Part shown: in pieces, positions 4,153 to 51,325 of the stretch | Position numbering within the stretch: the stretch's first letter is position 1 | How the letters are laid out: every line of letters begins with the position of its first letter | Origin: a virus | Lineage: Duplodnaviria > Caudoviricetes | IMG/VR virus record: IMGVR_UViG_3300021138_000028 | Coordinates: 1 to 62,090 of that record | DNA length: 62,090 bases | Reading direction: 5' to 3' (one strand) | Translations under genes and position numbers: made by a program | Notes under the pieces: model-generated | Told to the model about the DNA's origin: nothing | Databases searched by the model: none | The model's input: only the letters and a program-made list of their open reading frames with translations

Positions 4153-5320
4153 TCACACAGGTTAGCACACTTCCATTTCGACCGTCAATTCATTGGGGTA
4201 ATGAGTCTGCACGTTTGAACCTAGCCTATGTTGATCTCCCCTTTGCACACAGTATTGAATTTCTCAGCATTAGCCAATGGATACATTTATCCTAACTTAA
4301 ACTCTGCGAGCTTATGTTGTGTATGCCTTTGCATGAGGGGAAGATTTGGGAAGTGATGTAAGTTTGCGCACAATAGGTTCAACTCTAAGCACTGAACTAT
4401 AGGGTAAGAATGCTAAGAATCCACAGGGCAATTTTCAAGTGTGCAACGAACCGGGGAATTTCAAGGCTTGAAATAAGATTCTTTCACAGAAAAACCTTGT
4501 TCCTCCTGACACCGGGAGACTTTTGGGGAAGTGCTGTTTTTTCCTTGCACATATGGTACAATGCCGTCGTACCTCTAGAAAGGGGGAAAGGGGGAAAGTG
4601 TATTTCAGCTTTCGCCCGATTACGATTTATGCGATAGACCCTTTGACTGTTTTCAAAAAGTAAGAGTTTGAAGAGTTCGTTTTTTGGATGTGGTTTGAGT
4701 CTTGGAAAATCATTCAAAATAGGCTTTGCATAGAATCAGGTTGGGGGAATGGGCCTATCGGCATCCAATCAGTAATCTTTTCCGGATCGCTTCGCTCATA
4801 CATGAAAACTTTCCGGATGTTCCCTCGCTCTGCTCGGATCACACCTGCTACGCTTCGCGGTAAGGGACGACTTTCAACCATATCAGATAAAAGGTTATTG
4901 AGGACGTTTAAAAGGGCGCTCGGCGCTCTACAACCGTTTGGTTGGGGGAATTGCGCTGAAACGGGCGTCTGGGCGGCAAAAAGTGGCAATTCTCGCGGGG
5001 TAAGAATCCTGCTTGAAAATGGTCACTCGGTCCTGGCTGCCTTCTGAGTTCTCGGAGGTTGACTGATTTCATTGGGGGAGTTCGATTGTCGGCTCGATCT
5101 GGGCCAGCTGCGAACTTCAACCGGGGAATCCTCACGTCGGGCTGAATTCCTTGCCTATTCCCAACTTCTATATAGAACTGCCACATTTCCACGTCTGTCT
5201 ACTGCATGATTTTCGAGGGTCCGGCGAGCGAACGCGAGCGGGTGATACTTAAACACTCATTTGACTATCGCCTCATACACCCAATAGTCTATCAACTAAG
5301 TAGACTATTCGCTTGACGTA
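4153..5320. other. 1.2 kb non-coding region, candidate replication origin
   Basis: no credible gene; 8 co-oriented GGGGAA motifs, CGCTTCGC twice, extended -10 TGGTACAAT at 4554-4562. Confidence 0.45.
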
Positions 5321-12137: not shown

Positions 12138-12773
12138 ATGGCTCTATATGACAACTTACCGGACGAGACCCCGGCACAGAAGCGACCAAAGGGATTGACC
12201 GACCAAGAATGGATGCTTGTTGTTGAGTATTCGGCTTGCAAAAATAAGCGTCGTGCGCTAGATAAGGCGGGGTATCCCAAACACGCTTTGCATATTTTAG
12301 AACAACCTCACATTCGGATTGCTATTGCCGCTGAGGTCAAGAGCCAGATTTCTAGGGCTCGAAAGACGGCTGATGAAGTCATTAAGGCTTGCGAAGACGT
12401 GGTGTTCTCGGACATTGAGGATTTGATCTTTGTCGACGCTGAGGGCAAGATTCGATTGAAGCCATTGGACGAGATTCCTGACGATAAGAAGGCATTGATC
12501 CAAGGTTTGATTATTCGCAGGGATGGTTCGATTGACCTAAAGATCCCAGAGAAAGCGGTGATGATGCGGCTACTGATGACGGCACATGGGCTGCTTACGG
12601 ATCGTGTTGAACACGTTACCGAAGATAATGTGCTCCATAAGATGTATGCCGTCGCTATGGCTCGGAATGGGATCAGTGAATCGGTTGCAGGTTCGATCAT
12701 TATTGATGTTCAGAGGCAGATTGAACTTATGCCTCGAGCAACCAAGAATATGACACCAAAGGAAGATGAGTAA
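12138..12773 (+). CDS. terS: terminase small subunit
   Basis: LT..E...V.EY, A..KAGY, SDIEDL...LKPLDEIPDD...K...LL..HGLL.DRVE pattern; precedes terL. Confidence 0.8.
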   Translation: MALYDNLPDETPAQKRPKGLTDQEWMLVVEYSACKNKRRALDKAGYPKHALHILEQPHIRIAIAAEVKSQISRARKTADEVIKACEDVVFSDIEDLIFVDAEGKIRLKPLDEIPDDKKALIQGLIIRRDGSIDLKIPEKAVMMRLLMTAHGLLTDRVEHVTEDNVLHKMYAVAMARNGISESVAGSIIIDVQRQIELMPRATKNMTPKEDE

Positions 12774-13566
12774 GACCAACTTACCTATTCGATCCATGCG
12801 GGAAACCGTTGCGATCAAGAATATCACGAAGGATGCTATGGCGGCATTCCGATCAGCCCAATCTCCATCGGAGCGTCCGATGTGGCCTGATGAGTACATG
12901 GGCGATGATCCAGAATCAGCATTTAGGTTCGTAACTGAATGCTGGTGGACGGACAATGAAGCAGACAGGAAGATTGAACTGATTCCTAAGCGGGAATTTG
13001 TTTATGACTTCTGTGTGGAATGGGTGAATGCCTATCGACTTCGACAACCTATGATCTGCGAGAAGTCTCGACGTATCACGATTTCGTGGATATGCCGGGG
13101 ACTTGAAACTTGGGTCATGGGAAAGCAACGTGGATCGTGGATTATCATTGACCAAACTCATAAGAACGCTGCCGAACATCTGTGGCGAATTGATTTCTCG
13201 CTGAATCAGTTAAAGAACAGGAAGCCTGAGTACAACATTGAGTTCGAAACTCGTGGATCGGTTTTGATAAAGGAGCCGACGAACATCATTCTCGGAAATG
13301 GTTCGATGATTACGCAAGGTCACCAAGATGCAGGATCAGCACAAGGTAAAGGTAAGACGGGTGTTACACTTGAAGAGGTTTCAAAGTATGCGAACCCTAG
13401 TGAGTTTTGGGGACAAGCATTGATCGTTACTCAAGGTTCTGGTGAAGGGTCTGGTGGTTGGGTCTGTGGCATTGCCAATGCTTCTCCCAACGCTGACTGG
13501 CTCAAGATCAAGCATAACATGAGGGCTAGAGCCTTCCTTGGGATAGATGATAAGGATTGGATCTAA
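12766..13566 (+). CDS. terL: terminase large subunit, N-terminal ATPase half
   Basis: Walker A-like EKSRRITISW, Walker B GVTLEE. Confidence 0.75.
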   Translation: MSKTNLPIRSMRETVAIKNITKDAMAAFRSAQSPSERPMWPDEYMGDDPESAFRFVTECWWTDNEADRKIELIPKREFVYDFCVEWVNAYRLRQPMICEKSRRITISWICRGLETWVMGKQRGSWIIIDQTHKNAAEHLWRIDFSLNQLKNRKPEYNIEFETRGSVLIKEPTNIILGNGSMITQGHQDAGSAQGKGKTGVTLEEVSKYANPSEFWGQALIVTQGSGEGSGGWVCGIANASPNADWLKIKHNMRARAFLGIDDKDWI

Positions 13567-14438
13567 TGGCGCATCCTGGTCATCCAGTTAAGGGTACCGA
13601 TCTTGCCGATGGGACTCGATATGTGGCTATTCATTTCTCTGCCGATTCGACCAAAGGGCAGGAATGGGAGCAAAAGAAAGCTCGTGGTATTCCCGAAAGA
13701 TCGTGGAAACGTGAAATGGGGATGCACGATGATGTCTATGAAGGAGAACCCGTATTCTCCGATTACTCGGACGTTAGGCATTGTCCTTTCAGTATTCGTG
13801 AGACAGGTATTCCGATCTTTCCCAACTCGGTCTATATCGGTGGTTGGGATAATGGGCTCACTCCTGCCTTTACGCTACTTCAAATTACGCCACTATTCCA
13901 AGTCCAGTGTATTTTGGAGGTTACGTCGGGTGGTGATGATCCGATGGAAACGTTTGCGCCAAAGGTTCTCAATGCTATCGCTAGAAGAATCCCCGGCGCA
14001 TGGGACGAGGTTTACCATATTGGTGATCCGTCGATCTGGAACAGGACTGCAACGACGGGTGATAGTCCTGGACTATTAGCCAAGCGGAAATTTGGGATCA
14101 ACATTCGACGGGCAAGTAACGTTTGGGGCGTCAGACAGTCTGCCGTGACATGGCTTTTGACCGATCAGATTGATCCGAAGACTGAACGATTTATTCTTGA
14201 TGCCAAACATTGTCCAATTTTGAGAATTGGTTTCCAAGGCGCATATCAATTTGAAATTTCGCCTCGTGGAGATACGATTGGACCGGGGCGTATTCTTATG
14301 GAACCATTGAAAAATGGCTACTCACACGTACATGACGGGCTCCAAGCAGCAGCACAAGCGGCTAGAAAGTTCTGCGAGGGCAAATTAGCTCTCGGGATGG
14401 GCCTTCATCATGATACAATGCCAAAACGATGGCACTAA
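13566..14438 (+). CDS. terL: terminase large subunit, C-terminal RNase H-like nuclease half
   Basis: GWDNGLTPA, IGDPS, SHVHDGLQ; TAATG coupling and AAGGA SD. Confidence 0.75.
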   Translation: MAHPGHPVKGTDLADGTRYVAIHFSADSTKGQEWEQKKARGIPERSWKREMGMHDDVYEGEPVFSDYSDVRHCPFSIRETGIPIFPNSVYIGGWDNGLTPAFTLLQITPLFQVQCILEVTSGGDDPMETFAPKVLNAIARRIPGAWDEVYHIGDPSIWNRTATTGDSPGLLAKRKFGINIRRASNVWGVRQSAVTWLLTDQIDPKTERFILDAKHCPILRIGFQGAYQFEISPRGDTIGPGRILMEPLKNGYSHVHDGLQAAAQAARKFCEGKLALGMGLHHDTMPKRWH

Positions 14439-15373
14439 TTGACCAAAAAGTTCCTCAAGACATCGTAGATAGAGCGATTGCGAAAGCTCGCAACGTATTT
14501 ACGTGTCCTCATTGTGGCGCACCAAAAGGACAGCAATGTCGAAACGTCGGGTTAGACGATATTCATGATGTTCGGATGCCAAAAGGGATTGGATTTGCCG
14601 ATTTCCTTGACCTTGAAGCTAATTCTCCCAAGCTAGAGCAGATTGCACCTATGCTATTCGCTAAGAGGCTTGAAACGGTTAGGGTTCCCAAGCAGATTAC
14701 TCGTGGAGATATTGATTACAAGACTGCATCTGAGTCCGTAAGGGTTTTGGATGGTCGAATTCTTGTTGAAATGCTTCCTTCTGCGAAGCGATCTATTTTG
14801 ATTCCAGAATCAGTGGAGAGTAAACTAAGACCTCACCTTGGAGTCGTGTTGCAGTCGATGGAATACGCGACCCCGCGATGCGGAACTTACGTTTATCCTC
14901 CCAATCCGGGAACGATTGTGATTGTCAGGAGAACGGACGGTACTTGGATTACTGATGCTTACATGGGTGGCTATCAACCTCAAAATGAGGTTCGAGTTTA
15001 CGGTGTATATGGTGAGTTTCGGGGTCATCCTCAGATTTATGACTGGTGGGATTCTGTTCTTGCATCATATAATGAAGATATGGCTGCATGGGTACCCTAT
15101 GGGGATAAGATCCTCTTTCGACGTGATGCAAGTTTTGAAACAAGCGAAGGTGGGATTTATCTCCCTAATGGCTCACACCGTAGAACGGCAGAAGCAACTG
15201 TTGTTGCTGTCGGGCCGCTGGAAATGGATGTGAAGGTTGGCGATCGTGTTTGCTATGATCCATTCCATATTGAGCAGGTTGGCATTGAAGTCGACGGTGA
15301 AGTAGACATTGATCTTTTGATCGGTAGCCAACTTTCGATCAACTATGTGATCCCTGAGAAGGTGGTGGCATGA
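14429..15373 (+). CDS. Zn-finger plus two GroES-like (co-chaperonin) domains
   Basis: CPHCGAPKGQQC...H..R; VLDGRILVE...ILIPES...GVV; PYGDKILF...SEGGIYLP...ATVVAVGP...VKVGDRV. Confidence 0.7.
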   Translation: MALIDQKVPQDIVDRAIAKARNVFTCPHCGAPKGQQCRNVGLDDIHDVRMPKGIGFADFLDLEANSPKLEQIAPMLFAKRLETVRVPKQITRGDIDYKTASESVRVLDGRILVEMLPSAKRSILIPESVESKLRPHLGVVLQSMEYATPRCGTYVYPPNPGTIVIVRRTDGTWITDAYMGGYQPQNEVRVYGVYGEFRGHPQIYDWWDSVLASYNEDMAAWVPYGDKILFRRDASFETSEGGIYLPNGSHRRTAEATVVAVGPLEMDVKVGDRVCYDPFHIEQVGIEVDGEVDIDLLIGSQLSINYVIPEKVVA

Positions 15374-15713: not shown

Positions 15714-17180
15714 ATGGCATTAGTTGAACTCTCAGACGACATGAAGGGCAAGATCGGAAGGAAACTTCTGATGTATGTCGACGCAGGGCTCAACGCTATG
15801 GGCAGAATGCCTCAATGGTGGCTTGATGTTGAAAGGCAATACCGGAATGAAAATCCTGGCTTGAACCAAGGGCCTGATGGACAGAATAAGGGATACGATG
15901 AATTCCATATACCTTTGACTCAACCAAGGCTTGATATGCTTACGGCTCAAGTCACCACCGTTATTGGCAAGCAGAACCCGTACATGACGGACATGACCGA
16001 TCCAGAAGCTATCAGTGAACCCAAACAGCAATTGGTTCACTCGATATGGAAGGATGCTGGATTTGAAACCAAGATCCGTGATGCGGCAACAATTGTAGGA
16101 TGTACTGATGTTGCGTTCTATCGGCTATGCCCGAATTATGCCCAACGTGGCGCGGTAGACCTTGATGTTATTCACCCTGACTCGATGATCGTCTACCCTG
16201 CTTTGCCGAAAGGAATTCAAGCAGCGACTTGTGTTGGTCATAGGCTTGAAATGCGTCGATACTTAATTGAGTCGATGCAGGATGGAAAGACCTACTATAA
16301 AGGTGATCCTCCTACAACTTCATCTCAAGATGAGCATGATGCTGACCGTGAGCAAATGCACACTGGCGCAAATCTTGGTGATCTTGCTCCTGATGATGCT
16401 ACGGAACTTTGCGAGATTTGGCCTTTGGTCGTTCGGCTTGACCTAAAGCATATTGAAGATCCTTATACCAAGGAAAGAAACGAACGACTTTACCAAGCGA
16501 CGTTGGATTATAAGTCTGGTCGGCTCCTTCGACTTGAAGAGTATGACTTCGACTATATTTGGTATTTCAGGTCGCAGTACATTGGCTCACCACGCTATTT
16601 CTATTCTGGACAGTCAGTAGGTAGGAACCTTTATCCTGTTCAGGATATGTATAACTCCTTGTGGTCTGGATTCTTTGCTGGTGCCATGCAAGCGGCCTCG
16701 GGTGGTCCGGTAATTGGAGAAGGATTAACTTCTGGTGAGAAGTATCAGAAGTTTGGAATGACGACGGTTATTGAGTCTGATTCCCCTGTGACTCCGTGGC
16801 AAGGTTCAGTTCATTTTGACGGACAACCTTTCCCCCGTATGATTGCTTCTTGTGAAGAGATAGCAGATAAGATTGCTCGTATCTCTCAGAACACTCAGGG
16901 AGCGCAAGCACAAGGATCAACGACAGCTACGGAACAGTCGATCATCGCGGCTGGTGTTGCTGTTGGTATCGAACAGTTTATCGCTCGATTCTCTCAAGAC
17001 TTTCCTGCTATGGCGGCATTGACTTGCCAGATAGCCGCATCGGATTTTGAAGGGTTCTCTCAGAGGTATGGTCAGGATATTGTGATTCCTGATGATCTTG
17101 GAGGACCAGATTTAACCAACTTAGTTGGAAGCAACGTGGACGTATCACCTAACATCGTGGAGGCTCCAATTGGACAATAA
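15714..17180 (+). CDS. portal protein, N-terminal 488 aa
   Basis: position; YFYSGQSVG..L...Q...N.L and G.Q.QGSTTATE motifs typical of podovirus portals. Confidence 0.75.
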   Translation: MALVELSDDMKGKIGRKLLMYVDAGLNAMGRMPQWWLDVERQYRNENPGLNQGPDGQNKGYDEFHIPLTQPRLDMLTAQVTTVIGKQNPYMTDMTDPEAISEPKQQLVHSIWKDAGFETKIRDAATIVGCTDVAFYRLCPNYAQRGAVDLDVIHPDSMIVYPALPKGIQAATCVGHRLEMRRYLIESMQDGKTYYKGDPPTTSSQDEHDADREQMHTGANLGDLAPDDATELCEIWPLVVRLDLKHIEDPYTKERNERLYQATLDYKSGRLLRLEEYDFDYIWYFRSQYIGSPRYFYSGQSVGRNLYPVQDMYNSLWSGFFAGAMQAASGGPVIGEGLTSGEKYQKFGMTTVIESDSPVTPWQGSVHFDGQPFPRMIASCEEIADKIARISQNTQGAQAQGSTTATEQSIIAAGVAVGIEQFIARFSQDFPAMAALTCQIAASDFEGFSQRYGQDIVIPDDLGGPDLTNLVGSNVDVSPNIVEAPIGQ

Positions 17181-17700
17181 CACTCCTGCTCCGATTGAGC
17201 AAGCGTCAAGAACACTGTCCTTGCAAAAGACAGACCTATTGACTCATGTGAATTGGGAACCGACAGGTAAGAGCCCTGGTAATACGCCACAAGCCAAGTT
17301 GCAAGCGGCACAAATGTTCTTGCAGATGTTGGCTAATCCGTCGATTGCTCAATATATTAACCTACCTGCCCTGCTTACGATCATCCTAAAGGATGGTCCG
17401 TTGCAGAATGCTACCAATGTGTTGAAGTCTCAGCAAGAGGTTCAACAAATGGCGCAACAGCAACAGCAAGCGCAAATGGCTCAAATGCAAGCGCAACAAG
17501 GACCACCTAATGACCAATCTCAGCCGACAACAGCACCAGCTATTGATTCAGGGGCAGTTCCCGGACCTCCAGCGTCTCAAGGAGTTCCTGATGGGACCGG
17601 AATGGGAAGTATGTCAGGCGTACCTAATGCACCACCTATCAATAGCGGAATCCCGATGCCTGGATCTGGACCCGATTTCCCAGGCGTCATCCATCGCTAG
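17170..17700 (+). CDS. portal C-terminal segment in the +1 frame (separate gene or recoded continuation)
   Basis: LQAAQMFLQMLANP...QQMAQQQQQAQMAQMQ tail typical of portal C-termini; GGAGG-6nt-TTG. Confidence 0.6.
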   Translation: MDNNTPAPIEQASRTLSLQKTDLLTHVNWEPTGKSPGNTPQAKLQAAQMFLQMLANPSIAQYINLPALLTIILKDGPLQNATNVLKSQQEVQQMAQQQQQAQMAQMQAQQGPPNDQSQPTTAPAIDSGAVPGPPASQGVPDGTGMGSMSGVPNAPPINSGIPMPGSGPDFPGVIHR

Positions 17701-17815
17701 GGAGCAAGGTAAGGCTAAGTTTTTGAGACGATTCGAGACACCGGATAGCACTTTTACGGAAGTAAAAGATTTCTGGGAAAAGGAAATGAAGGAAAAATGG
17801 AAGACGAAATTGTAG
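17510..17815 (+). CDS. small post-portal helical protein
   Basis: usual slot between portal and scaffold; AAGGA SD. Confidence 0.6.
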   Translation: MTNLSRQQHQLLIQGQFPDLQRLKEFLMGPEWEVCQAYLMHHLSIAESRCLDLDPISQASSIAREQGKAKFLRRFETPDSTFTEVKDFWEKEMKEKWKTKL

Positions 17816-18480
17816 AAGTCCCTGCTGACTATACCGGGGCAGAAACCCCTGTGAATTCGACCACCGTTGCTACAGAATCCCAAGCGGTTACCCCGCCTCC
17901 GATTATTGCGGCACCAGATTTTGAAGCACTTCGGGCGCAAGCTATCGAGGAAGGACGACGACTGGCACGAGAAGAGTTATTGGCTTCTCAGCAAGTTGCT
18001 CAAACTCCTGCTCCGGTAGCCACACCTAAGAGTGAATTGCCACCGGAGTTTTTTGAAGATCCAGAAGGGTACATGGATCGTAAAGCGGCTGCCCAAGCCA
18101 AACTTGCCGTTGAGCAAGCAATGGCGACGGTGATGCCGTATATCCAGCGTACTCAGTCTGATGATGTTGTTGGTAAGGTAGCAAAGGGCCTAACTCCTGA
18201 TGCTCAAGACTTTGCTCGTAAGATCGCAAGTCAAATTGCACCGGGCGTTAAGCTGGAAGGTGAAGCATTGGATCTTATACAACGTGCTACTCGTGACTAT
18301 GATCGTGAGGTCCGCGAGAAGCAAGCAAAGACAGTTGAACCAGCGGTAGCGGAAACGGCTACGGTTCGTATGAATTCTGACATGATGGATACGTTCAAGG
18401 CAAATAACGCTTTTCGCGCTAAACACAATTTGCCTCCTATGTCTGCGGCTGAATTCAAGGCCCAAATGGAGAAACAATAA
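17797..18480 (+). CDS. capsid scaffolding protein (putative)
   Basis: acidic, Pro/Ala-rich, helical; upstream of the capsid genes. Confidence 0.65.
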   Translation: MEDEIVEVPADYTGAETPVNSTTVATESQAVTPPPIIAAPDFEALRAQAIEEGRRLAREELLASQQVAQTPAPVATPKSELPPEFFEDPEGYMDRKAAAQAKLAVEQAMATVMPYIQRTQSDDVVGKVAKGLTPDAQDFARKIASQIAPGVKLEGEALDLIQRATRDYDREVREKQAKTVEPAVAETATVRMNSDMMDTFKANNAFRAKHNLPPMSAAEFKAQMEKQ

Positions 18481-22708: not shown

Positions 22709-22977
22709 CGTACTTCCCTGCTTTCTCGAATGCTCCCCAAGGAACTTATCAAGCTCCTGCGGCAATGGCGGCATTATTCACGACGATGATCTTTACCTAC
22801 GTTCCTGACTCGGTAATCGTGAATACGCTTGATGTTGTTCCGAATTATGATGAGACAGGGGGTATCTGCCAACGAACAGGAAAGTGGTATGGTTCATCCC
22901 AATTAGTGAAAGACGGAACTGGACGAATAGTGGGTTCGGATCATGCTCTTGATGGAGGAAATAATTGGCTTTTCTAG
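22705..22977 (+). CDS. hypothetical protein
   Basis: GTGA overlap. Confidence 0.6.
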   Translation: MTYFPAFSNAPQGTYQAPAAMAALFTTMIFTYVPDSVIVNTLDVVPNYDETGGICQRTGKWYGSSQLVKDGTGRIVGSDHALDGGNNWLF

Positions 22978-23624
22978 TCAGTGATGTAACCGCTCAAGTT
23001 CGGCTTCACATGAGCGACTTTCCTTTGGACACCGATCCAGTGGCTTTGTCTATCGTAAATCTAGCATACAGTGACATCGTAGCAAAGGTCCGTCTTTATC
23101 CGACTTCGGCATTAACGATTTATCCAATTGCCAACCAACAAGAGTACACGCTACCTTCTTCAATCGTGCGTATCTGGTCAGCGAGATGGTGGACAAGTTC
23201 TACGACATCTATTCCAATCATGGAAACGTCAATTGACGAACTCGATTACGAGAATCCAGTATGGCGATCGGTCTCACCAAGCAATCAGCCATATAAATAC
23301 TACGAAGATGGAGGACAACTTGGATTCTTCCCGGCTCCAAGTACAACGGTAGCTTCAGGCTACCCTTGCGTGATTCTTCAAACTACGCTTTTTACTCCTT
23401 ACGCTACGATTTCCGATCCCCTTCCAACATATCTATTGAACGTTGATGCTTGGGTATGGGGAGTGTGCGCTCGATGGTCAGCGATGCAACACCATGATTC
23501 GGCAGATTACTTTGCGAATCTTGCTCTTAATGCTCGTGCTGAACTTATTGCATCCAGAAACAACTTGCTTGTCAGACAAAAGCCAATGGTGAAGGCTTCC
23601 TATAACGGTCCTCGTAATAGGTAA
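22965..23624 (+). CDS. head-tail adaptor / tail tubular protein A-like
   Basis: QQEYTLP...P.KYY.....LGFFPAP motif; GGAGG-TTG start. Confidence 0.7.
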   Translation: MAFLVSDVTAQVRLHMSDFPLDTDPVALSIVNLAYSDIVAKVRLYPTSALTIYPIANQQEYTLPSSIVRIWSARWWTSSTTSIPIMETSIDELDYENPVWRSVSPSNQPYKYYEDGGQLGFFPAPSTTVASGYPCVILQTTLFTPYATISDPLPTYLLNVDAWVWGVCARWSAMQHHDSADYFANLALNARAELIASRNNLLVRQKPMVKASYNGPRNR

Positions 23625-29715: not shown

Positions 29716-32700
29716 ATGTCTGATGAATCCCAGAAGCCTTTAACGAATCCCGATGATGTAATCAAGGCATACGGCATTCCAAAGTATCAACCGTCAATCA
29801 CTACACCGGATGATGCTATCAAGGCGTATGGAATTCCAAAATATGATGCAACAAAACCTTTAACGAATCCCGATGATGTAATCAAGGCATACGGCATTCC
29901 AAAGTATCAAAAAGGGGCTCAACCTCCATCCATACCGGGTGCAGGTTTCGGTACTCCATCGGGCACAATTGGCACTCCTTCTCAGCCGATGAGTCCTAAC
30001 GACATCTCGGGTGCGCCTGATGTTCCTCCTGCCACAATGCCCGAACTTGGGTTAGCCTCAAGCATCCTGCCTGAGTTGGTTCAACCATACGCTAAAGCAT
30101 TTCAGCAAGCGGCGAATCAACAACACGCTGCTCAAGTCGCACAGCAAGCACCACAGGCAAATCAGCAATACCAATCGGTGCAGAACTTTTTGAATCAAGC
30201 ACGACAGCGATTCAGTGGGAACATGGGCAATATGTTGCCTACACAGCAAGCATCACAGCCCGTACAAAATGGTGGCGATGAATTGCTTCAAAGTCTCGGA
30301 ATTACACCTCCGAACGTCAATCCACAACCTGCCAAGGTGAAGCCAAAGAACGTTCGAGAACTGTTCCAAGGACAAACGTTGCCGCAGATGCAACAAACGA
30401 TTCAGCAATCGGCACAACAACCTCAGAATTGGGAAGTGCCGGGAATGGAGAACCATAACGTTGCTCCATCGTTAGAGGATGCTTCTAAGGCATTTCATGA
30501 CCAGATTGGAGTAGCCAATGACTATCTAAATAAAATCGGTCCCATTGGTCAGTTGTCAGCATTCGTCAAAGGGCTATTCCCGAATACTTCCAATAATGTT
30601 GACGCCATTCAAAAAGCACAATCGGGTGTTGGTGGCGCAATGAGCAATCTAGTCAATCCATTTATGCTGATGGATATGGTCACGAAAGGTAATACCGTCG
30701 ACCAAGTGATCCAAGCGGCACAAGACTTTCAAAATAGCAACTCTCCGATGGAAGGATTATCCAATGCTGTTCTGCATAATGCGGTAACGGGTTCGGCTGT
30801 AAATCCAAACTTGCAATTCTTAATGCCGTCGACGGTCACCAAAGATGTTATGGGTACATCGGCTCAAGGTATGCCAATTGTCAAGGCCCAAGAGTTTGAC
30901 CCACAAGCATACGGTGAAGCGGCAGGTAACGCTTTCATCATGGCAAAGGGAGGACTAGAAGGTCTTCATGCTATGCGTGGGGTTCCCAAGGCTGGGCCAG
31001 TAAGCGAAACGATTACTCCACCACCATTCCCGCAGGAATCAGTAGCCGAACCCGCTTCTGTGACTCAAAATCAATACTTGACGCACGATGATTTACTTAA
31101 CAATGTTAAGAATTCAATTAAAGAAATTCAAGATTATGTGGTTCAAAATGCACCAACACCAGAACACGCTGAATACTGGTCTACCCCGCTAAATGTGACG
31201 GGGATGGGAGCTTTCAGTACCGCAAAATCAGCTATTGATACGTTAAAGGATTACGCAAAACAACTAAAAGGTGAAGCAAGAACTAATGCAATTGACTCAA
31301 TAAATAAAGTAGAAAGCGTGAATCAAGCAGGAGGGGAATCAGGTTCACTATCTACACAACGTATATCCCCTGAAGGTGAACCATTTACGGTTCCAGAAGA
31401 AAAGGTGATTCAAGGTGTAGCCGATGCGCTAGTTCATCAATTGAAAGGGACACCAGATATTAATGGTTCGCGCTCTATACTTTTATCGCGATTCATGAAC
31501 GAATTGCAAAGTGGACAATACTCTGCGGAGATATTCAGCAAAATACAAAAGCTAATTGGTGAAGATAATCCTGAATTAGCAAAAAGCACGAACCCAGATG
31601 AATTAAGAGCAATAGCTGAACAGCAAGGCAAGAATGCGCTAGATAAAATTATGCAAGAAGGGGGTAAGCCTCAAGCCACAACTCCTACTCCTGAGCCGCA
31701 ATCGGCTCCAACTAAGCCACAAACGAATTCTGCACCTAAGCCTTATACCGCAAGCAATTGGCGGCAAGTAGCGCAAGAGAATATTGAGACTGCGAACCAT
31801 GCGTTGCAGAATATCAATCAGCGTGACGACCTAACCAACAGCCAAAAGCGTGGGTTGGCAATGGAACTTCGTGAGGTACGAAGTCAGTTGCAGGATTCAC
31901 TTGACTTCAATGAGCCTGCGCCATTTATGATTGACGAAATGAACGATGCTCACCAAGCATCGGGCATGGATGTTCATGATCTAGTTAAGCAACTTGTTAA
32001 CCACCAGCGGGATGTTTACGATATTCATCCAGATGAAATCCCTGCGGCAACGGACAAGATGTATTCTGACTTACGAGAATCGGGCGGCAAGATTACTCCC
32101 GATATGTTCTCGCATTATGAGGGTCGCATTGAACCCGAATCAGACATTCAGGAAAACCCAGCGCAAGAAAATACTGAAACTCATCTTGAGAATGGATCGG
32201 TAATTAAGCCTGAACCTGTAAGCGAAGCAGAACCAACGGAATCGAATCCTACTGATACGACTCGTGAGTCGATCACAACGAAACCTGCCAAGCCTAAAGC
32301 TGAACCTAAGCCACAGAAACCTCGTGGTGGAGCAAAAGCACTTATCGGAATGTCTCCAGATAGTGATGTTTTTGATCCGTTCAGCGACGACTACGATCCA
32401 GGGATTGTAGAGGCAGTTCTCAATCAGTTCGGGCCTCCTGATACTACTTATGACTACCACGAGGCAGGAAGTGCAGCAAGCCATTATCTTCAAGCGGCAC
32501 AAGAGGCACAGAGAGATGAAGACCTATATTTTGAGCAACGTGCAAACCGCTATGACACCTTTGGTAGTGAACTTAAAAATGTATTAAGCGATCCTCAAGT
32601 AATGAATTGGGGTGGTTGGAACAAATGGTCGAAAGTATACGGAAAAAGTAAATACGGAATAGCAAATAAAGTTATTTGGAAGCCAACTGGATTCATTAAA

Positions 32701-35700
32701 GGTGTCCCTTCTAACGGGATTGACCCAATTGTCAATGAAATGCTTGCGGAACACGCAACAAGGAATTACGGTGACCCAGAGTACCGATTAGCAAATAGCG
32801 AACAACATAAAGAAGCGTTAAATTCGGGCAATAAAGGCACAACAAAAATCGGGAAAAAACTTGACCGTATTCTTTCCAATCGAGATACGCCTCCATCTGG
32901 ATCAAAGATGGTTAGTGAAGTTGCATTGGATGACTATGGCGGGAATCGCCATATGTGGCCTTTGCCTCTTGTCCTAGACTTTATCAAGTCTGGTGACATT
33001 CCAATGACTGATCCAAGGCTCGAAGCCCCAACAAAAAGAAGAGGATTTACAAGTGCAGAAACAGAGCAAGCCCAACGATACTATTCCAAGCGTCCCAACG
33101 CTAAAATCACCAACGACCTCGACGTTAACCGTACCACCCAACCCTCCGGTGCCACAAGTGAACCAGTCGGTAACAATCAACCCACCGAAGTACGACCCAC
33201 AAGTGGAAGCGATCAAGCAACAACTTCGGGCAGGACGAATGCCGTCGTTGAAAACCCTGTTGGGGATCATAGCGGACGCGAAAATGGAGCAAATGAACCA
33301 GCACGATCAAATGGTTCATCAGAACCGAATGCAAAGCCAAGCACAAAGCAACTCAACCCAGACAGCGTTGCCGCAGTTGCCGCAGCTAGGCAAGACATTC
33401 AAGACGCCACCAACTTCTTAGCTCGGCTCGGAGCCAAAGTCAGTAGCGGCGTTGACATTACTGAGATCCCAGAAGCACTTACCCATCTTGGCAAGATGGC
33501 TAAAGCATGGGTAACTATTGGTGAAGTTCATGCACTCGATCTTGTTGACAAGGTAAATGATTGGCTAAAAGAGAACAACCTTACGATTTCGAAGGATGCT
33601 CTCAATAAAGTTCTTGCCGACCATGATCTTCTTCATCCATCTGAGTCTACGGAAAGTGCAGAAGCAAGCCAAGCGGTTACGCCACTACCTTTGAACGAAA
33701 ATGGTCGACCAACAACAACGGGTGGATCACGACGAGTCATCGAGGAACACGTTGCCGCTGGCGCATTGAAGCCTATCCCTAAAGGAACTTGGGATTCACC
33801 ACAGGAAACGATCAAGAAAGCTCAAGAATGGGTCGCAAACGGTGGTTCTCCTGATGCGCTCCTAGATGAGTTGGAGCAGAATAAGCGTCCAGCAAACGGC
33901 ATTGAGGTTCGTATTCTGGAAGAAGGCGATCTTGCCAAGCAACGGGCTATCAACAAGGCTCAATCAGAAGCATCGTCAACCAATGATCCTGCAAGGAAAG
34001 CGGCACTTCAAGCAGAAGTTTCTCGGCTGTCTGACGACTTACAGCAGTTCAAAGAACGACAACAAAAGATAGCGTCTCAAGCAGGAAACGTACTTGCTCA
34101 GTTCCAAGGGAATCGTGAGATTGACACTGGAAACTTTGCTCAAGTTCAAGCGGCAATAGAGAAGTCTCAAGGACGTAGCCTGTCAGCACCAGAACGAGAA
34201 CAGTTGCATCATATAATTGAGCAGTTAAAGTCTGACGATGCAGAACACAGGGACAATCTTGCAAGCCTGACTGAGAAACTTCACCAGCATGAACAGACTA
34301 TTCGTGAGACACAAGCACAGCTCGAACTCAATAAGTCGGTGCGAGAAACCCGAACCAAGGCTACTCGTGCATCGCTCTATGACGAAAGACAGAAGTTATT
34401 CCAAGATCTTGCTCGGGTCGGTTCACGTTTAAGTTCCAATCCTGCCGATGAAGTAGCAAACGGTTTTGTTATCCTCGGGAAACTGGCAAAGAACATTGCG
34501 GCAGAAGGGGTCTTGTCGATTGACGACTTGATGAGCAAGATCAAGACTCAACTTGCCGACAACAAGATCGATTTCCATTTCACAAAGAAGGATCTCATTG
34601 ACTCCATTATTGGAGACAACGGTAAAGAGAAACCAGTACAAAGCGAACAGCAAAAGAATTCCGCTGATGTTGTCAAAATGGCAAAGCTCCATGATGCCAT
34701 TGATGACATCTGGGAGAATGGGAACAAGGAATCTCCACCCAAAGTAAAGCAACCCGAACATCCAGAGGTAGCAAAGCTCAAAGCTGAATTCAAGTCAATC
34801 AAAAAGGCAACGGCACCTGCTAATGCTTCGCTTGATTACGTGGTTAAGAATGCGGCTGAAACGGGCAATTCCGATCTTAATGCACTCCTAGAGAAAGTCA
34901 AAAAGTCTTATCCGAATGCGACTCTTCGAGATGTTGTCGAATCGCTGTCCCCAAAAGAAGGCCGACCCAATACGCTTACACCTGAAAGCGCGAACCTGCG
35001 GGACGCACGAATGCAGGCCGATCTGACAAAGAAAATCGCAGATCAAGAAGTTAAGACTCCACGAAAGAACCCGTTAGAGAAACCTATTCCTGACAGTCCA
35101 GAGGTCACTCGGCTCAAGGGCCTTCTGGATGAAGCGCGGAAGAATAATCCTCAACCCAAGGTCTATAAGCCAACGGGCAATACAGTGAAGGACACGCTTA
35201 ATACGACCAAGGTTGGATCGTTCTCCGATCTCGTCAAAGAAGTTCAAGCCAAGCATCCTGAAATGAGCGAAGAGGACATTTACAATGCACTCTTAGAAAA
35301 GAAAGCGTCGGCTCAAGAATCGGCACGTCAAGTCACGAATCGGACTATTCGCAGCCAAGCGAAAATGATCAAAGATATTCGTGATCTTGAATCACAACTC
35401 AAGATGGGTAAGGCCGCTGAGTCAATCAAGGAGGCTGCCAAGACCAAGGATGCTGAATCGCAAGCACTTGAAACTAGACGAAAGAATCTCCAAAGTCTTG
35501 TTCGCAGCATGAGTCAATCGCAAAAGCCTACGAACCTTGCGGCAGTTTTGGCAGAAGGAGCTCGGTTTATAATTATGGCGAATCCAAGGTCTATTGCCCA
35601 TATTGCTCTTGCTGGTCCTGCGACAATGGCTATGGATGAGGCAGGCAAGATTCCTGCTGGAATTCGCAATACCGTCAACTCAGGTTTATACAAAGTATCT

Positions 35701-37002
35701 GGTGGCAAACTTGGAACGAATCAAATCCTCAATGCTGGGCCAAATTTGCCTGATTATATAAGGTCTGCCGCTACTGCACTTAAAGTCAAAGATGCGGCGA
35801 AATACGCATGGCGAGGTCAGAGTGAAGCGGAAATGCAACTCAATCAATCGCCCGATCAATACTATGGATCACATGGTCTTCAAACTCCTGCTAATAAAAT
35901 CAGAAACATGATTCGCAACCCAGAAGCACGAACCACGCAAAACACATTGAAAACTATTGAAGAACTCGAACATAGTGTTGGAACTTTGCATGGTGCCCTT
36001 CAACAACTTACAGCTAAGAATCCAGGCATGATGCGAACGGTCTTGGAGCAATCAAAGCTAATGGCGCATAACCTAAGTGAGCCTGAATTGCAAAGTCTTA
36101 GCCCAAGCCTCAAGAACCTCACAGGCAAACAGCTTCGATCTGCGGCTCAAACATATCTTGCGGAAAATCCAACCGCCGAAACAAAACAGAAAGGACTCGA
36201 TTATGGCAATCGTATTGCCAATATGAGCGACAACAACATCAATAAGCTTGTGGCAAACGTGCGAAGCAGTCTCGGGAAGACGGGTGAAACCGTCAATGAA
36301 ATCGGAGGCAAGAATAATGCGTCCAAACTTGCTAATGCTGGCATTACTTACGCTATGCCCGTTGCCAAGCCAAGTATCAATCAAGCGTTTATAAACGCTG
36401 AATATTCTCCGCTCGGTATAGCTCGTGGTGGATTTTCCCTTTTGTCTGATAGTTTGCACAATGCGACAAAGAACCTAGAACCTGGACAAAAGCCTTCTGC
36501 TAGTGCTTGGTCTAAATTGTCCGACGTGCTTCATGACACAACAACGAAACTTACGACAGAAGAGAAAGCGAATGCACAACGATTATTCGACCATGGGCTC
36601 GTAGGCACTGGCATGATTTACCTCGGAGCGCAAATGTACCTAAAGAACATGGCTACAGGTTCTTATCTTGGGCCGCAAGATAAAGAGCGGGCCGCAAACG
36701 CAAAGAGAGCAAAGCAGAATGCTACTGGCATCGTGCCTTCAGTTCTTGACACTGACAAAGGAATGGGTGTCGTTCCTGTTGGTGGAGGGATCGGACTACC
36801 ACTTCATATGTTTGGTGCGCTTGGGGCTGCTTTACTTGCTGGTGTCAACTTCGCAAAGCAACTTCTCGACGGACATCCTAATGAAGCACCAGAGGCTTTA
36901 GCTCATAGAATATATGAATCGTTACTGAACGACTACAATCCGATCAGTCCAATCATGAGCGCAATGGACAAGTTAAAGAATCTTTTCAAGCCAAAGAAGT
37001 AA
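29716..37002 (+). CDS. giant internal virion / DNA-transfer protein (2428 aa)
   Basis: size, position and composition typical of podovirus ejectosome proteins. Confidence 0.65.
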   Translation: MSDESQKPLTNPDDVIKAYGIPKYQPSITTPDDAIKAYGIPKYDATKPLTNPDDVIKAYGIPKYQKGAQPPSIPGAGFGTPSGTIGTPSQPMSPNDISGAPDVPPATMPELGLASSILPELVQPYAKAFQQAANQQHAAQVAQQAPQANQQYQSVQNFLNQARQRFSGNMGNMLPTQQASQPVQNGGDELLQSLGITPPNVNPQPAKVKPKNVRELFQGQTLPQMQQTIQQSAQQPQNWEVPGMENHNVAPSLEDASKAFHDQIGVANDYLNKIGPIGQLSAFVKGLFPNTSNNVDAIQKAQSGVGGAMSNLVNPFMLMDMVTKGNTVDQVIQAAQDFQNSNSPMEGLSNAVLHNAVTGSAVNPNLQFLMPSTVTKDVMGTSAQGMPIVKAQEFDPQAYGEAAGNAFIMAKGGLEGLHAMRGVPKAGPVSETITPPPFPQESVAEPASVTQNQYLTHDDLLNNVKNSIKEIQDYVVQNAPTPEHAEYWSTPLNVTGMGAFSTAKSAIDTLKDYAKQLKGEARTNAIDSINKVESVNQAGGESGSLSTQRISPEGEPFTVPEEKVIQGVADALVHQLKGTPDINGSRSILLSRFMNELQSGQYSAEIFSKIQKLIGEDNPELAKSTNPDELRAIAEQQGKNALDKIMQEGGKPQATTPTPEPQSAPTKPQTNSAPKPYTASNWRQVAQENIETANHALQNINQRDDLTNSQKRGLAMELREVRSQLQDSLDFNEPAPFMIDEMNDAHQASGMDVHDLVKQLVNHQRDVYDIHPDEIPAATDKMYSDLRESGGKITPDMFSHYEGRIEPESDIQENPAQENTETHLENGSVIKPEPVSEAEPTESNPTDTTRESITTKPAKPKAEPKPQKPRGGAKALIGMSPDSDVFDPFSDDYDPGIVEAVLNQFGPPDTTYDYHEAGSAASHYLQAAQEAQRDEDLYFEQRANRYDTFGSELKNVLSDPQVMNWGGWNKWSKVYGKSKYGIANKVIWKPTGFIKGVPSNGIDPIVNEMLAEHATRNYGDPEYRLANSEQHKEALNSGNKGTTKIGKKLDRILSNRDTPPSGSKMVSEVALDDYGGNRHMWPLPLVLDFIKSGDIPMTDPRLEAPTKRRGFTSAETEQAQRYYSKRPNAKITNDLDVNRTTQPSGATSEPVGNNQPTEVRPTSGSDQATTSGRTNAVVENPVGDHSGRENGANEPARSNGSSEPNAKPSTKQLNPDSVAAVAAARQDIQDATNFLARLGAKVSSGVDITEIPEALTHLGKMAKAWVTIGEVHALDLVDKVNDWLKENNLTISKDALNKVLADHDLLHPSESTESAEASQAVTPLPLNENGRPTTTGGSRRVIEEHVAAGALKPIPKGTWDSPQETIKKAQEWVANGGSPDALLDELEQNKRPANGIEVRILEEGDLAKQRAINKAQSEASSTNDPARKAALQAEVSRLSDDLQQFKERQQKIASQAGNVLAQFQGNREIDTGNFAQVQAAIEKSQGRSLSAPEREQLHHIIEQLKSDDAEHRDNLASLTEKLHQHEQTIRETQAQLELNKSVRETRTKATRASLYDERQKLFQDLARVGSRLSSNPADEVANGFVILGKLAKNIAAEGVLSIDDLMSKIKTQLADNKIDFHFTKKDLIDSIIGDNGKEKPVQSEQQKNSADVVKMAKLHDAIDDIWENGNKESPPKVKQPEHPEVAKLKAEFKSIKKATAPANASLDYVVKNAAETGNSDLNALLEKVKKSYPNATLRDVVESLSPKEGRPNTLTPESANLRDARMQADLTKKIADQEVKTPRKNPLEKPIPDSPEVTRLKGLLDEARKNNPQPKVYKPTGNTVKDTLNTTKVGSFSDLVKEVQAKHPEMSEEDIYNALLEKKASAQESARQVTNRTIRSQAKMIKDIRDLESQLKMGKAAESIKEAAKTKDAESQALETRRKNLQSLVRSMSQSQKPTNLAAVLAEGARFIIMANPRSIAHIALAGPATMAMDEAGKIPAGIRNTVNSGLYKVSGGKLGTNQILNAGPNLPDYIRSAATALKVKDAAKYAWRGQSEAEMQLNQSPDQYYGSHGLQTPANKIRNMIRNPEARTTQNTLKTIEELEHSVGTLHGALQQLTAKNPGMMRTVLEQSKLMAHNLSEPELQSLSPSLKNLTGKQLRSAAQTYLAENPTAETKQKGLDYGNRIANMSDNNINKLVANVRSSLGKTGETVNEIGGKNNASKLANAGITYAMPVAKPSINQAFINAEYSPLGIARGGFSLLSDSLHNATKNLEPGQKPSASAWSKLSDVLHDTTTKLTTEEKANAQRLFDHGLVGTGMIYLGAQMYLKNMATGSYLGPQDKERAANAKRAKQNATGIVPSVLDTDKGMGVVPVGGGIGLPLHMFGALGAALLAGVNFAKQLLDGHPNEAPEALAHRIYESLLNDYNPISPIMSAMDKLKNLFKPKK
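29737..29910 (+). repeat. three 60-bp-period coding repeats; units 1 and 3 share 54 identical bp
   Basis: LTNPDDVIKAYGIPKY / ITTPDDAIKAYGIPKY / LTNPDDVIKAYGIPKY. Confidence 0.9.
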
Positions 37003-50291: not shown

Positions 50292-50876
50292 ATGAACCTA
50301 TTCACTGACCCACAAGAAGAAGTCGACCCATTTGATACAGGCAAGCCTCATGCTTTCACTGGTGCGCTAGATAATTTACTTGATCGTGGTGGCGCTATTG
50401 ACGATGCAAGCGAACTGCTTCGGGACTACCTGAAAGAAGAGAAGGTAAAGAAAGGTCCGAAACTCGTAAAGGATGCCGCGCAATATCGTCGATCAATCAA
50501 GGACATCAATGCGATGTATCCTGGTTGGTATACCAAGTCGGAACATTATGCTCCTATCTATGGTGGCGGCATGGTCAAGCGAGATTTTGGTGGCTTTGCC
50601 GACTTATGCGGCGTTTCAAACTCAAAGTTCGTTGCGGTACAGGTTACAACCGTCGACCAAGTTGGTCCTCATATCCGCAAGTATGTCTCTGATGCTAAGT
50701 CCGGTGGGCTCGGAGACATAACGATTGAACAGAACCTACGTGCTTTCTTGCAGAACGGGGGAGTGTTCGTTATTCTTGGCTACCATAAGCCTGCCTCCCG
50801 ATGGGAATGCAAGCCTCTTGTCGTTACTGAGGCAACACTGGATGCGGCTATCGCAAGGAAAAGGAAATCAAAATGA
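50292..50876 (+). CDS. PD-(D/E)XK nuclease, Holliday-junction-resolvase-like
   Basis: RDFGGFADLCGV...VAVQVTT. Confidence 0.65.
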   Translation: MNLFTDPQEEVDPFDTGKPHAFTGALDNLLDRGGAIDDASELLRDYLKEEKVKKGPKLVKDAAQYRRSIKDINAMYPGWYTKSEHYAPIYGGGMVKRDFGGFADLCGVSNSKFVAVQVTTVDQVGPHIRKYVSDAKSGGLGDITIEQNLRAFLQNGGVFVILGYHKPASRWECKPLVVTEATLDAAIARKRKSK

Positions 50877-51325
50877 CCATACAAGACTATCAGAACGTAG
50901 CGTTCGGTACGACTCTTATTGTCGGGATCGCTGCTCACTTACTCGAAGTAAAGAACTACAATAAGTCCAACGATGAACTCAAAAAGAATGCAACTTATTG
51001 GGCTCGGGAAGCGACTAAGCTCCAAGAATTGCTAGACGAAAAACGGATAAAGGAAGAGTCTGTTAATTCTGATGTCATTTGGAGCCACGATGGTTGGACA
51101 ATTATGTCGTCAATCGAAGAGTTAGAGTCTAACGTAAGCGAGTGGCTTTGCCCGATTTGCGGACCTAACTTATCCAAAAGATTTAAGTCGATCAAGGCAT
51201 TGGAAAGCCATAAAAGACAGATGCACGATCCGCAGAATCATGATTGCGAATGTGGAAGATCCTTTACCTCTAAGCAAGGGTTAGGGCGTCATCGTCTCGC
51301 TTGCAAGGGTCCGAAAGACAAGTAA
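50873..51325 (+). CDS. TM + coiled coil + two C2H2-like Zn fingers
   Basis: CPIC...F.....L..HKRQMH; CECGRSF.SKQGL.RH...C. Confidence 0.7.
   Translation: MTIQDYQNVAFGTTLIVGIAAHLLEVKNYNKSNDELKKNATYWAREATKLQELLDEKRIKEESVNSDVIWSHDGWTIMSSIEELESNVSEWLCPICGPNLSKRFKSIKALESHKRQMHDPQNHDCECGRSFTSKQGLGRHRLACKGPKDK

Follow-up and report, generated by a model that had tools for sequence, protein, structure and literature searches.

Probable fission of the portal gene at the body–crown linker in an uncultivated freshwater podophage and its relatives

The virus record IMGVR_UViG_3300021138_000028 (Duplodnaviria; Caudoviricetes), which is complete, spans 62,090 bp, has direct terminal repeats and is referred to here as the window, carries a portal gene that is interrupted between the body of the protein and its C-terminal crown. 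The body is encoded by ORF1 (15714–17180, + strand) and the crown by ORF2 (17170–17700, + strand). We interpret the interruption as a conserved fission of the portal gene at the body–crown linker, after which translation of the crown gene is coupled to that of the body gene, and put the probability of this interpretation at roughly 0.86. The split, the separate start signals, the homology of both pieces to one portal and the conservation of the split in a clade of relatives were observed. Because the downstream piece has its own start signal, no ribosome hop or frameshift is needed to account for the interruption. An earlier note on this DNA had offered a hop, a +1 frameshift and a true two-chain portal as possible explanations, and the last of these is supported by the clade-wide split, the separate starts and the common origin of both pieces.

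The two portal genes and their junction

The ORF1 product (488 aa) comprises the wing, stem and clip of an SU10/T7-type portal, without the crown. It matched the Pfam profile SU10_portal (PF23899) at 34.1 bits (cut-off 30) over profile positions 186–456 of 593, and residues 27–452 of a continuous portal from the database, P0019, align to it at 36% identity. W468 of P0019 aligns with W29 of ORF2, and the break therefore falls within a linker of ~15 residues. The ORF2 product (176 aa, from a TTG start) consists of a putative docking segment, crown helices and a Gln/Pro/Gly-rich tail; the label "crown" was assigned by position and not from the domain boundaries of solved structures. ORF2 lies in the +1 frame relative to ORF1, and this frame is open from 17125 to 17700. 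It matched the C-terminal parts of two PHROG profiles, 449 (positions 432–510 of 520) and 332 (positions 460–547 of 560), and the ORF2 motif WEPTGKSPGNTP occurs within continuous portals of 577–628 aa, so the earlier reading of this frame as a portal-like C-terminus holds. ORF2 alone gave no match against Pfam.

ORF1 ends with GAG GCT CCA ATT GGA CAA TAA (APIGQ-stop; stop at 17178–17180). A Shine-Dalgarno (SD) sequence of the crown gene, GGAGG (17159–17163, + strand), lies within the ORF1 codons for Val-Glu-Ala, 6 nt before the TTG at 17170–17172. From the last stop to the conserved motif, the +1 frame contains only two start codons, this TTG and another at 17125, before which no SD-like sequence was seen. 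The end of ORF1, including its TAA, overlaps the beginning of ORF2 by 11 nt (17170–17180, + strand), an arrangement that is typical of translationally coupled genes. GGAGG occurs 89 times in the window, and at 19 of these sites it is followed by the start of an ORF of 60 codons or more. The SU10-type adaptor gene of the window (22965–23624, + strand) also has a TTG start 6 nt behind GGAGG and a 13-nt overlap with the preceding ORF; it served as an internal control for the TTG start layout, and its Pfam match begins at residue 5. Translation from TTG 17170 gives the same sequence as a database protein of 176 aa, P0028 (100% identity and coverage). A second protein, of 174 aa (P0029), is 80% identical to ORF2 and begins with MDNNSPNVIEQ, that is, with the same MDNN start.

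The closest relative, represented by P0001 for the body and P0029 for the crown, showed where the two proteins have changed. The ORF1 body is nearly identical to that of P0001 (414 of 434 residues). The C-terminal tail of ORF1 (17073–17177, + strand; residues 454–488), which follows the last conserved helix ending in RYG, evolves fast: 12 of its first 25 residues are changed and none of its last 10 (hypergeometric P = 0.006). The codons for these last 10 residues span the SD sequence, the start codon and the overlap. ORF2 differs from P0029 at 7 of the first 20 residues and at only 2 of the 70 residues from 21 to 90. Together, these difference counts suggest drift at the new termini, with conservation of the junction signals and of the domains. 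Compared with the short linker of the fused forms, there are 35 extra residues in ORF1 and about 13–17 in ORF2, and the tails of the other body proteins in the split clade are of variable length and often Pro/Gly-rich. The most conserved crown motif, WEPTGKSPGNTPQAKLQ (17254–17304, + strand; ORF2 residues 29–45), has 15 of 17 positions invariant across nine stand-alone crown proteins, which share 30 invariant columns, and it is also found in fused portals.

The split in related phages

A total of 27 ORF1 homologues were tested with hidden Markov models of the body and of the crown. The 15 full-length proteins closest to ORF1 (P0001–P0015; 40–93% identity, 465–553 aa) have the body and no crown, and stop shortly past the conserved ...DYDAFAxRYG helix. 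All 11 homologues at 26–37% identity (P0017–P0027; 577–850 aa) have the crown, and continue unbroken into the sequence ...W-E-x-N-G-K-(S/T)-P-G-N-T-P..., the motif found at ORF2 residues 29–40. The remaining protein (P0016) is a 343-aa fragment without a crown and is uninformative. Homologue alignment, a check suggested in the earlier note, places the break at the body–crown linker, with the closest relatives split and the distant ones fused.

The crown was also traced independently of the body. A search with ORF2 retrieved nine proteins of 147–176 aa, all starting with Met. Searching 1.84 billion representatives with a profile of the crown yielded 63 hits; those covering at least 55 of the 81 profile positions were kept, and after removal of fragments and of doubtful and low-complexity hits, 60 proteins could be classified. 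They comprise 41 fused portals (>450 aa) and 19 stand-alone proteins (109–176 aa) in which the crown begins within the first 20 residues. In two cases, the source contigs of a body and a crown protein have the same length (P0009 and P0035, both 5485 nt; P0010 and P0095, both 63845 nt), which hints at a shared contig. The body–crown linker of fused relatives (P0043, P0049, P0053 and P0057) varies from roughly 25 to 60 residues, suggesting that the site tolerates a break. That of P0043, with ~60 Pro/Gly/Met-rich residues, resembles the tails of split body genes and may show the linker as it was before fission.

Runs containing the window sequence are freshwater and lake metagenomes, with no RNA run listed among them. 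The portal region (15714–17700) had no blastn match among 50,697 GenBank phage records, and neither ORF1 nor ORF2 had a tblastn match among them. Scans of viral contigs recovered only two relative lineages besides the window's own near-copy, and a metagenome scan returned three loci, namely a duplicate of locus L003, a truncated locus and a fused form. In locus L004, a body gene of 555 aa ends with TAA, followed by gcc and then by ATG in the same frame (5088–5096), so that the crown gene (148 aa, ATG start) is separated from the body gene by 3 nt. Readthrough of this in-frame TAA could in principle give a fused chain. In locus L003, the body gene (505 aa) is joined by an ATGA overlap, behind GGAGG, to an ORF of 146 aa, and the crown gene has an ATG start and a 23-nt overlap with the end of this inserted ORF. 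The inserted ORF (L003, 4934–5374; L011, 3–314; + strand) carries an HELLH (HExxH) motif; it had no Pfam or PHROG match, and Atlas yielded only a weak lead, to SprT-like or M78 HExxH peptidases. L011, a near-copy of L003 from another data set, spans the crown gene together with the second half of the inserted ORF. At L008, a locus further removed (33% identity), the portal is continuous (617 aa).

The three lineages thus have three junction layouts, each with its own crown start codon. The frame relation of the halves is not conserved, being a +1 overlap in the window, the same frame in L004 and an intervening gene in L003, and no recoding signal is common to the three junctions. As far as sequence comparison can speak to it, the DNA of these relatives settles the question of mechanism.

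A maximum-likelihood tree of the body was calculated from 57 sequences, 16 split (including the window) and 41 fused, leaving out P0016 and other rows covering <380 profile positions. The split state needs one change on this tree. Of the 16 split rows, 15 group in one clade that has full support in the Shimodaira–Hasegawa-like approximate likelihood ratio test (SH-aLRT 100; 70 with P0013 included), nested among the fused forms. The nesting and the single change indicate that the split is derived and old. An origin by short duplication, which the earlier note had attached to the two-chain portal, is not supported, since the split is old and clade-wide down to ~40% identity and the direct repeat at the junction is absent from the relative at 93% identity. 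On a tree of the crown only, 13 of the 19 stand-alone crowns are in one group (support 91) and three in another (support 93). Repeated fission at the same body–crown boundary is possible. Six more divergent stand-alone crowns of 109–172 aa (P0047, P0048, P0055, P0038, P0070 and P0090) are placed apart from the main group of stand-alone proteins on this tree, and may mark further independent portal fissions.

A predicted two-chain portal and its alternatives

In the mechanism that we propose, the two genes would have arisen by fission of one ancestral SU10/T7-like podophage portal gene, with the break in the loop between the last body helix and the crown. Ribosomes ending the first gene at the TAA (17178–17180) would either begin the second themselves or open up its start, which would give similar amounts of the two chains. 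A conserved segment near the N-terminus of the crown protein, residues 13–39 (LQKTDLL..WEPTGKSPGNTP), would dock on the last long helix of the body (415–456) and on the segment 79–107, and the resulting portal ring would contain 12 body and 12 crown chains. A broader proposal goes further: a clade of uncultivated freshwater podophages would have a portal of 12 body and 12 crown chains, kept to ~40% identity, with an unrelated gene inserted in one lineage and possibly with repeated fission, making it the first natural two-chain portal. We regard this broader proposal as somewhat better than an even bet.

The fold was examined with an AlphaFold model of the fused homologue P0019, which was built from a 32-sequence alignment and reached a predicted local distance difference test score (pLDDT) of 83 and a predicted template modelling score (pTM) of 0.74. 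In this model, the linker lies between helix 444–455 and a short helix (459–462) and strand (467–470), and three C-terminal helices follow. The top Foldseek hits of the model were all phage portals, which shows the fold for P0019 and not for the window's own chains. Alignments to the portals of VP1, N4, Pan3, SU10 and T7 extended over ~550–650 columns with E values of 1e-16 to 1e-11, at a sequence identity to solved portals of 10–14%. A sequence search of the PDB with P0020 gave nothing useful. The complex of ORF1 (13-row alignment) with ORF2 residues 1–100 (9-row alignment) was also modelled. It scored 0.64 on the interaction prediction score from aligned errors (ipSAE), with 0.00 for the best of three controls; the ipSAE mark is reached by 116 of 157 solved complexes and by 2 of 215 mismatched pairs. 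The runs agreed in at least 88% of contacts, with a partner pLDDT of at least 69, and the modelled contacts connect ORF2 residues 13–39 with ORF1 residues 79–107 and 415–456.

The alternative that survives best, which we nevertheless consider improbable, is that the portal works without a crown and that the crown piece is what remains of a decaying gene or has been re-purposed. The C-terminal regions of portals vary widely among phages (target lengths 431–701), which would suit such a loss. Decay is difficult to reconcile with a crown ORF that has a start codon in every lineage seen, with the 30 columns invariant across nine proteins, or with the concentration of changes relative to P0029 in the first 20 residues and not in residues 21–90. 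The model, moreover, predicts that the crown docks on the body.

Bypassing of the kind found in T4 gene 60 was the first suggestion of the earlier note, and we now give it only a very small chance. In T4 gene 60, the take-off and landing codons match, and a stop codon immediately follows the take-off codon. The sequence features on which the suggestion was based are all as the note described them, namely the APIGQ-stop end, the APIEQ sequence 25 nt further on, the matched CAA codons and the TTG 6 nt behind GGAGG. A ribosome would leave at CAA 17175–17177, directly before TAA 17178–17180, land at CAA 17200–17202 in the ORF2 frame and resume at GCG 17203, giving a chain of ~650 aa. As in T4 gene 60, an essential gene is interrupted by a stop, and the codon just before this stop occurs again further on in the frame where translation would resume. 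The unchanged last 10 codons of ORF1 in P0001 and the IEQ kept in P0029 also fit a hop. The gap is about 22–25 nt here, compared with 50 nt in T4 gene 60, and the downstream piece has its own SD sequence and start and is found as a separate 176-aa protein in the database. The relatives have plain two-gene layouts and no hop signal in common: their crown genes start at ATG, and what separates the halves is an in-frame stop in one lineage and an entire gene in the other. The tail of ORF1, where a nascent-peptide signal upstream of the take-off site would lie, is poorly conserved, with 12 of 25 residues differing from P0001.

The matching codons belong to an imperfect direct repeat of 15 nt (17163–17202, + strand), in which 17163–17177 and 17188–17202 match at 12 of 15 positions with an offset of 25. 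The second copy, GCT CCG ATT GAG CAA in the +1 frame, encodes APIEQ, and the first encodes APIGQ. Such a repeat is present in ~3% of the 45-nt neighbourhoods in the window, and position-offset matches of this type number 447 in the window compared with ~18 per 62 kb in shuffles. The repeat is therefore mildly unusual at a chosen site and not compelling. It is absent from the closest relative, which has APIGQ in P0001 and NVIEQ in P0029, and a matching in-frame codon a few codons downstream is probably not rare by chance. As the repeat core CCAATTGG is palindromic, a weak hairpin (17167–17197) is predicted with the TAA in its loop, as a hop might use, and the TTG in its stem. The 91-nt junction RNA folds at −17.9 kcal/mol, no better than shuffled sequences (z = −0.45; equalled or bettered by 58 of 200 shuffles). 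The hairpin could instead help couple initiation to the termination of ORF1. More generally, a matched codon and a stop are weak evidence for bypassing unless relatives are checked.

A programmed +1 frameshift in the overlap, giving a fused portal, is less probable still. ORF2 is in the +1 frame and this frame is open from 17125, so 56 nt (17125–17180) would be available for a shift. On inspection of 17125–17180, +1 re-pairing of the P-site tRNA at GCT, CCA, ATT, GGA and CAA before the TAA is impossible, and no known shifty-stop motif was recognised at the end of ORF1. The change in frame relation among relatives (same frame in L004, a gene between in L003) and the lack of a shared recoding signal also speak against it.

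We attach equally little credence to an assembly or sequencing indel that broke a normal single portal gene: a one-base indel would look alike in any single assembly, yet the split recurs in relatives down to 40% identity, and no single indel could mend the extra residues in both ORF1 and ORF2. The junction is the same in a second assembly, of a near-identical phage (L001/L002/L009), which over 8464 nt shows 18 single-nucleotide polymorphisms (SNPs) relative to the window and no gaps; from 16515 to 18380, the junction included, the two are identical. Ten of the 18 SNPs fall in ORF1, and all of these are synonymous, leaving the protein unchanged. In run X1, possibly the source sample, a Logan contig with a depth of 15.7 matches the junction without indels; X1 is the only run covering the junction, with X2, X4 and X6 having no contig over 16972–17311. 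An indel and a downstream piece unrelated to portal C-termini were the two outcomes that the earlier note had named as fatal to its proposals; the second assembly has no indel, and ORF2 is homologous to portal C-termini.

Several points weigh against conserved gene fission with a coupled crown gene. TTG is a weak start codon, and the 10 invariant codons at the junction would equally fit a recoding signal. Both chains of the portal are predicted from their genes. A hop in the window, or readthrough of the in-frame TAA in L004, could also yield a fused chain at low level. The crown-only tree is poorly resolved and needs five changes, of which the well-supported branches force only one. The docking score may reflect the prediction model's memory of solved single-chain portals, because the halves belong to a protein with solved relatives; it shows likeness, not binding. 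Finally, the DNA of relatives comes from only two other lineages (L003/L006/L010/L011 and L004/L012), and the junction DNA of the closest relative (P0001/P0029) is not among it.

Known portals, significance and neighbouring genes

The portal is a hallmark protein of tailed phages and herpesviruses and, to our knowledge, has been treated as one chain that forms a 12-mer. The portals of SU10 (7Z44), VP1 (8ZKM), N4 (9YF8) and T7 (gp8; 6QWP and 6R21) are of the same family and fold as that of the window. These solved portals align as a single chain over the whole P0019 model, whereas the C-terminal crown of the window is a separate gene product, and neither the window nor its clade has one polypeptide with wing, stem, clip and crown. 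In its 11-nt overlap, its GGAGG 6 nt before the start, the conservation of both halves and the position of the break in a variable interdomain linker, the junction resembles ordinary gene fission with coupling; it differs in that the affected protein is the portal. Phrase searches of the open literature, with subscription journals outside their scope, found no description of a split portal, and the single paper with a joint phrase match for "gene fission" concerned a tape-measure protein.

A conserved split at the body–crown boundary would mean that the covalent link is dispensable, and it would provide a natural way to study the crown in packaging and genome retention. The crown would then be a separately made, and potentially separately dosed, subunit. 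The split is also a trap for annotation: a portal of ~480–550 aa in this clade should not be taken for a truncated protein, nor the small gene downstream for an orphan.

The portal genes belong to an SU10-type head–tail module, which comprises, in order, a small terminase, a large terminase, a GroES-like gene, the portal and, further on, the SU10-type adaptor at 22965–23624, a type shared with SU10 itself. The large terminase of the window is also encoded by two ORFs, an ATPase part (12766–13566, + strand; 266 aa, phrog_2 with E = 5e-5) and a nuclease-like part (13566–14438, + strand; ~290 aa, ATG at 13566–13568). The halves are joined by TAATG (stop at 13564–13566) behind AAGGA, the same junction style as in the portal split of this genome, and TGA and TAA at 13548–13553 in the downstream frame leave only four codons for a frameshift. 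The near-identical assembly L002 shares the terminase split. A single ORF of 544 aa encodes the terminase in L004, and the L003 gene, truncated by the start of the locus, is also in one unbroken frame at the split point; the terminase fission is therefore recent.

The gene directly upstream of the portal (14429–15373, + strand) joins a phage zinc-finger (PF24623) to GroES/Cpn10 (PF00166, E = 1e-12), and its homologues lie upstream of the portal in L003, L004 and L007. In the tail/virion module, an ORF of 2428 aa (29716–37002, + strand) had no Pfam match at E ≤ 0.001. A protein of 150 aa (50873–51325, + strand) has C2H2-type zinc-finger matches (PF13912, PF13894 and PF00096), which is unusual for a phage.

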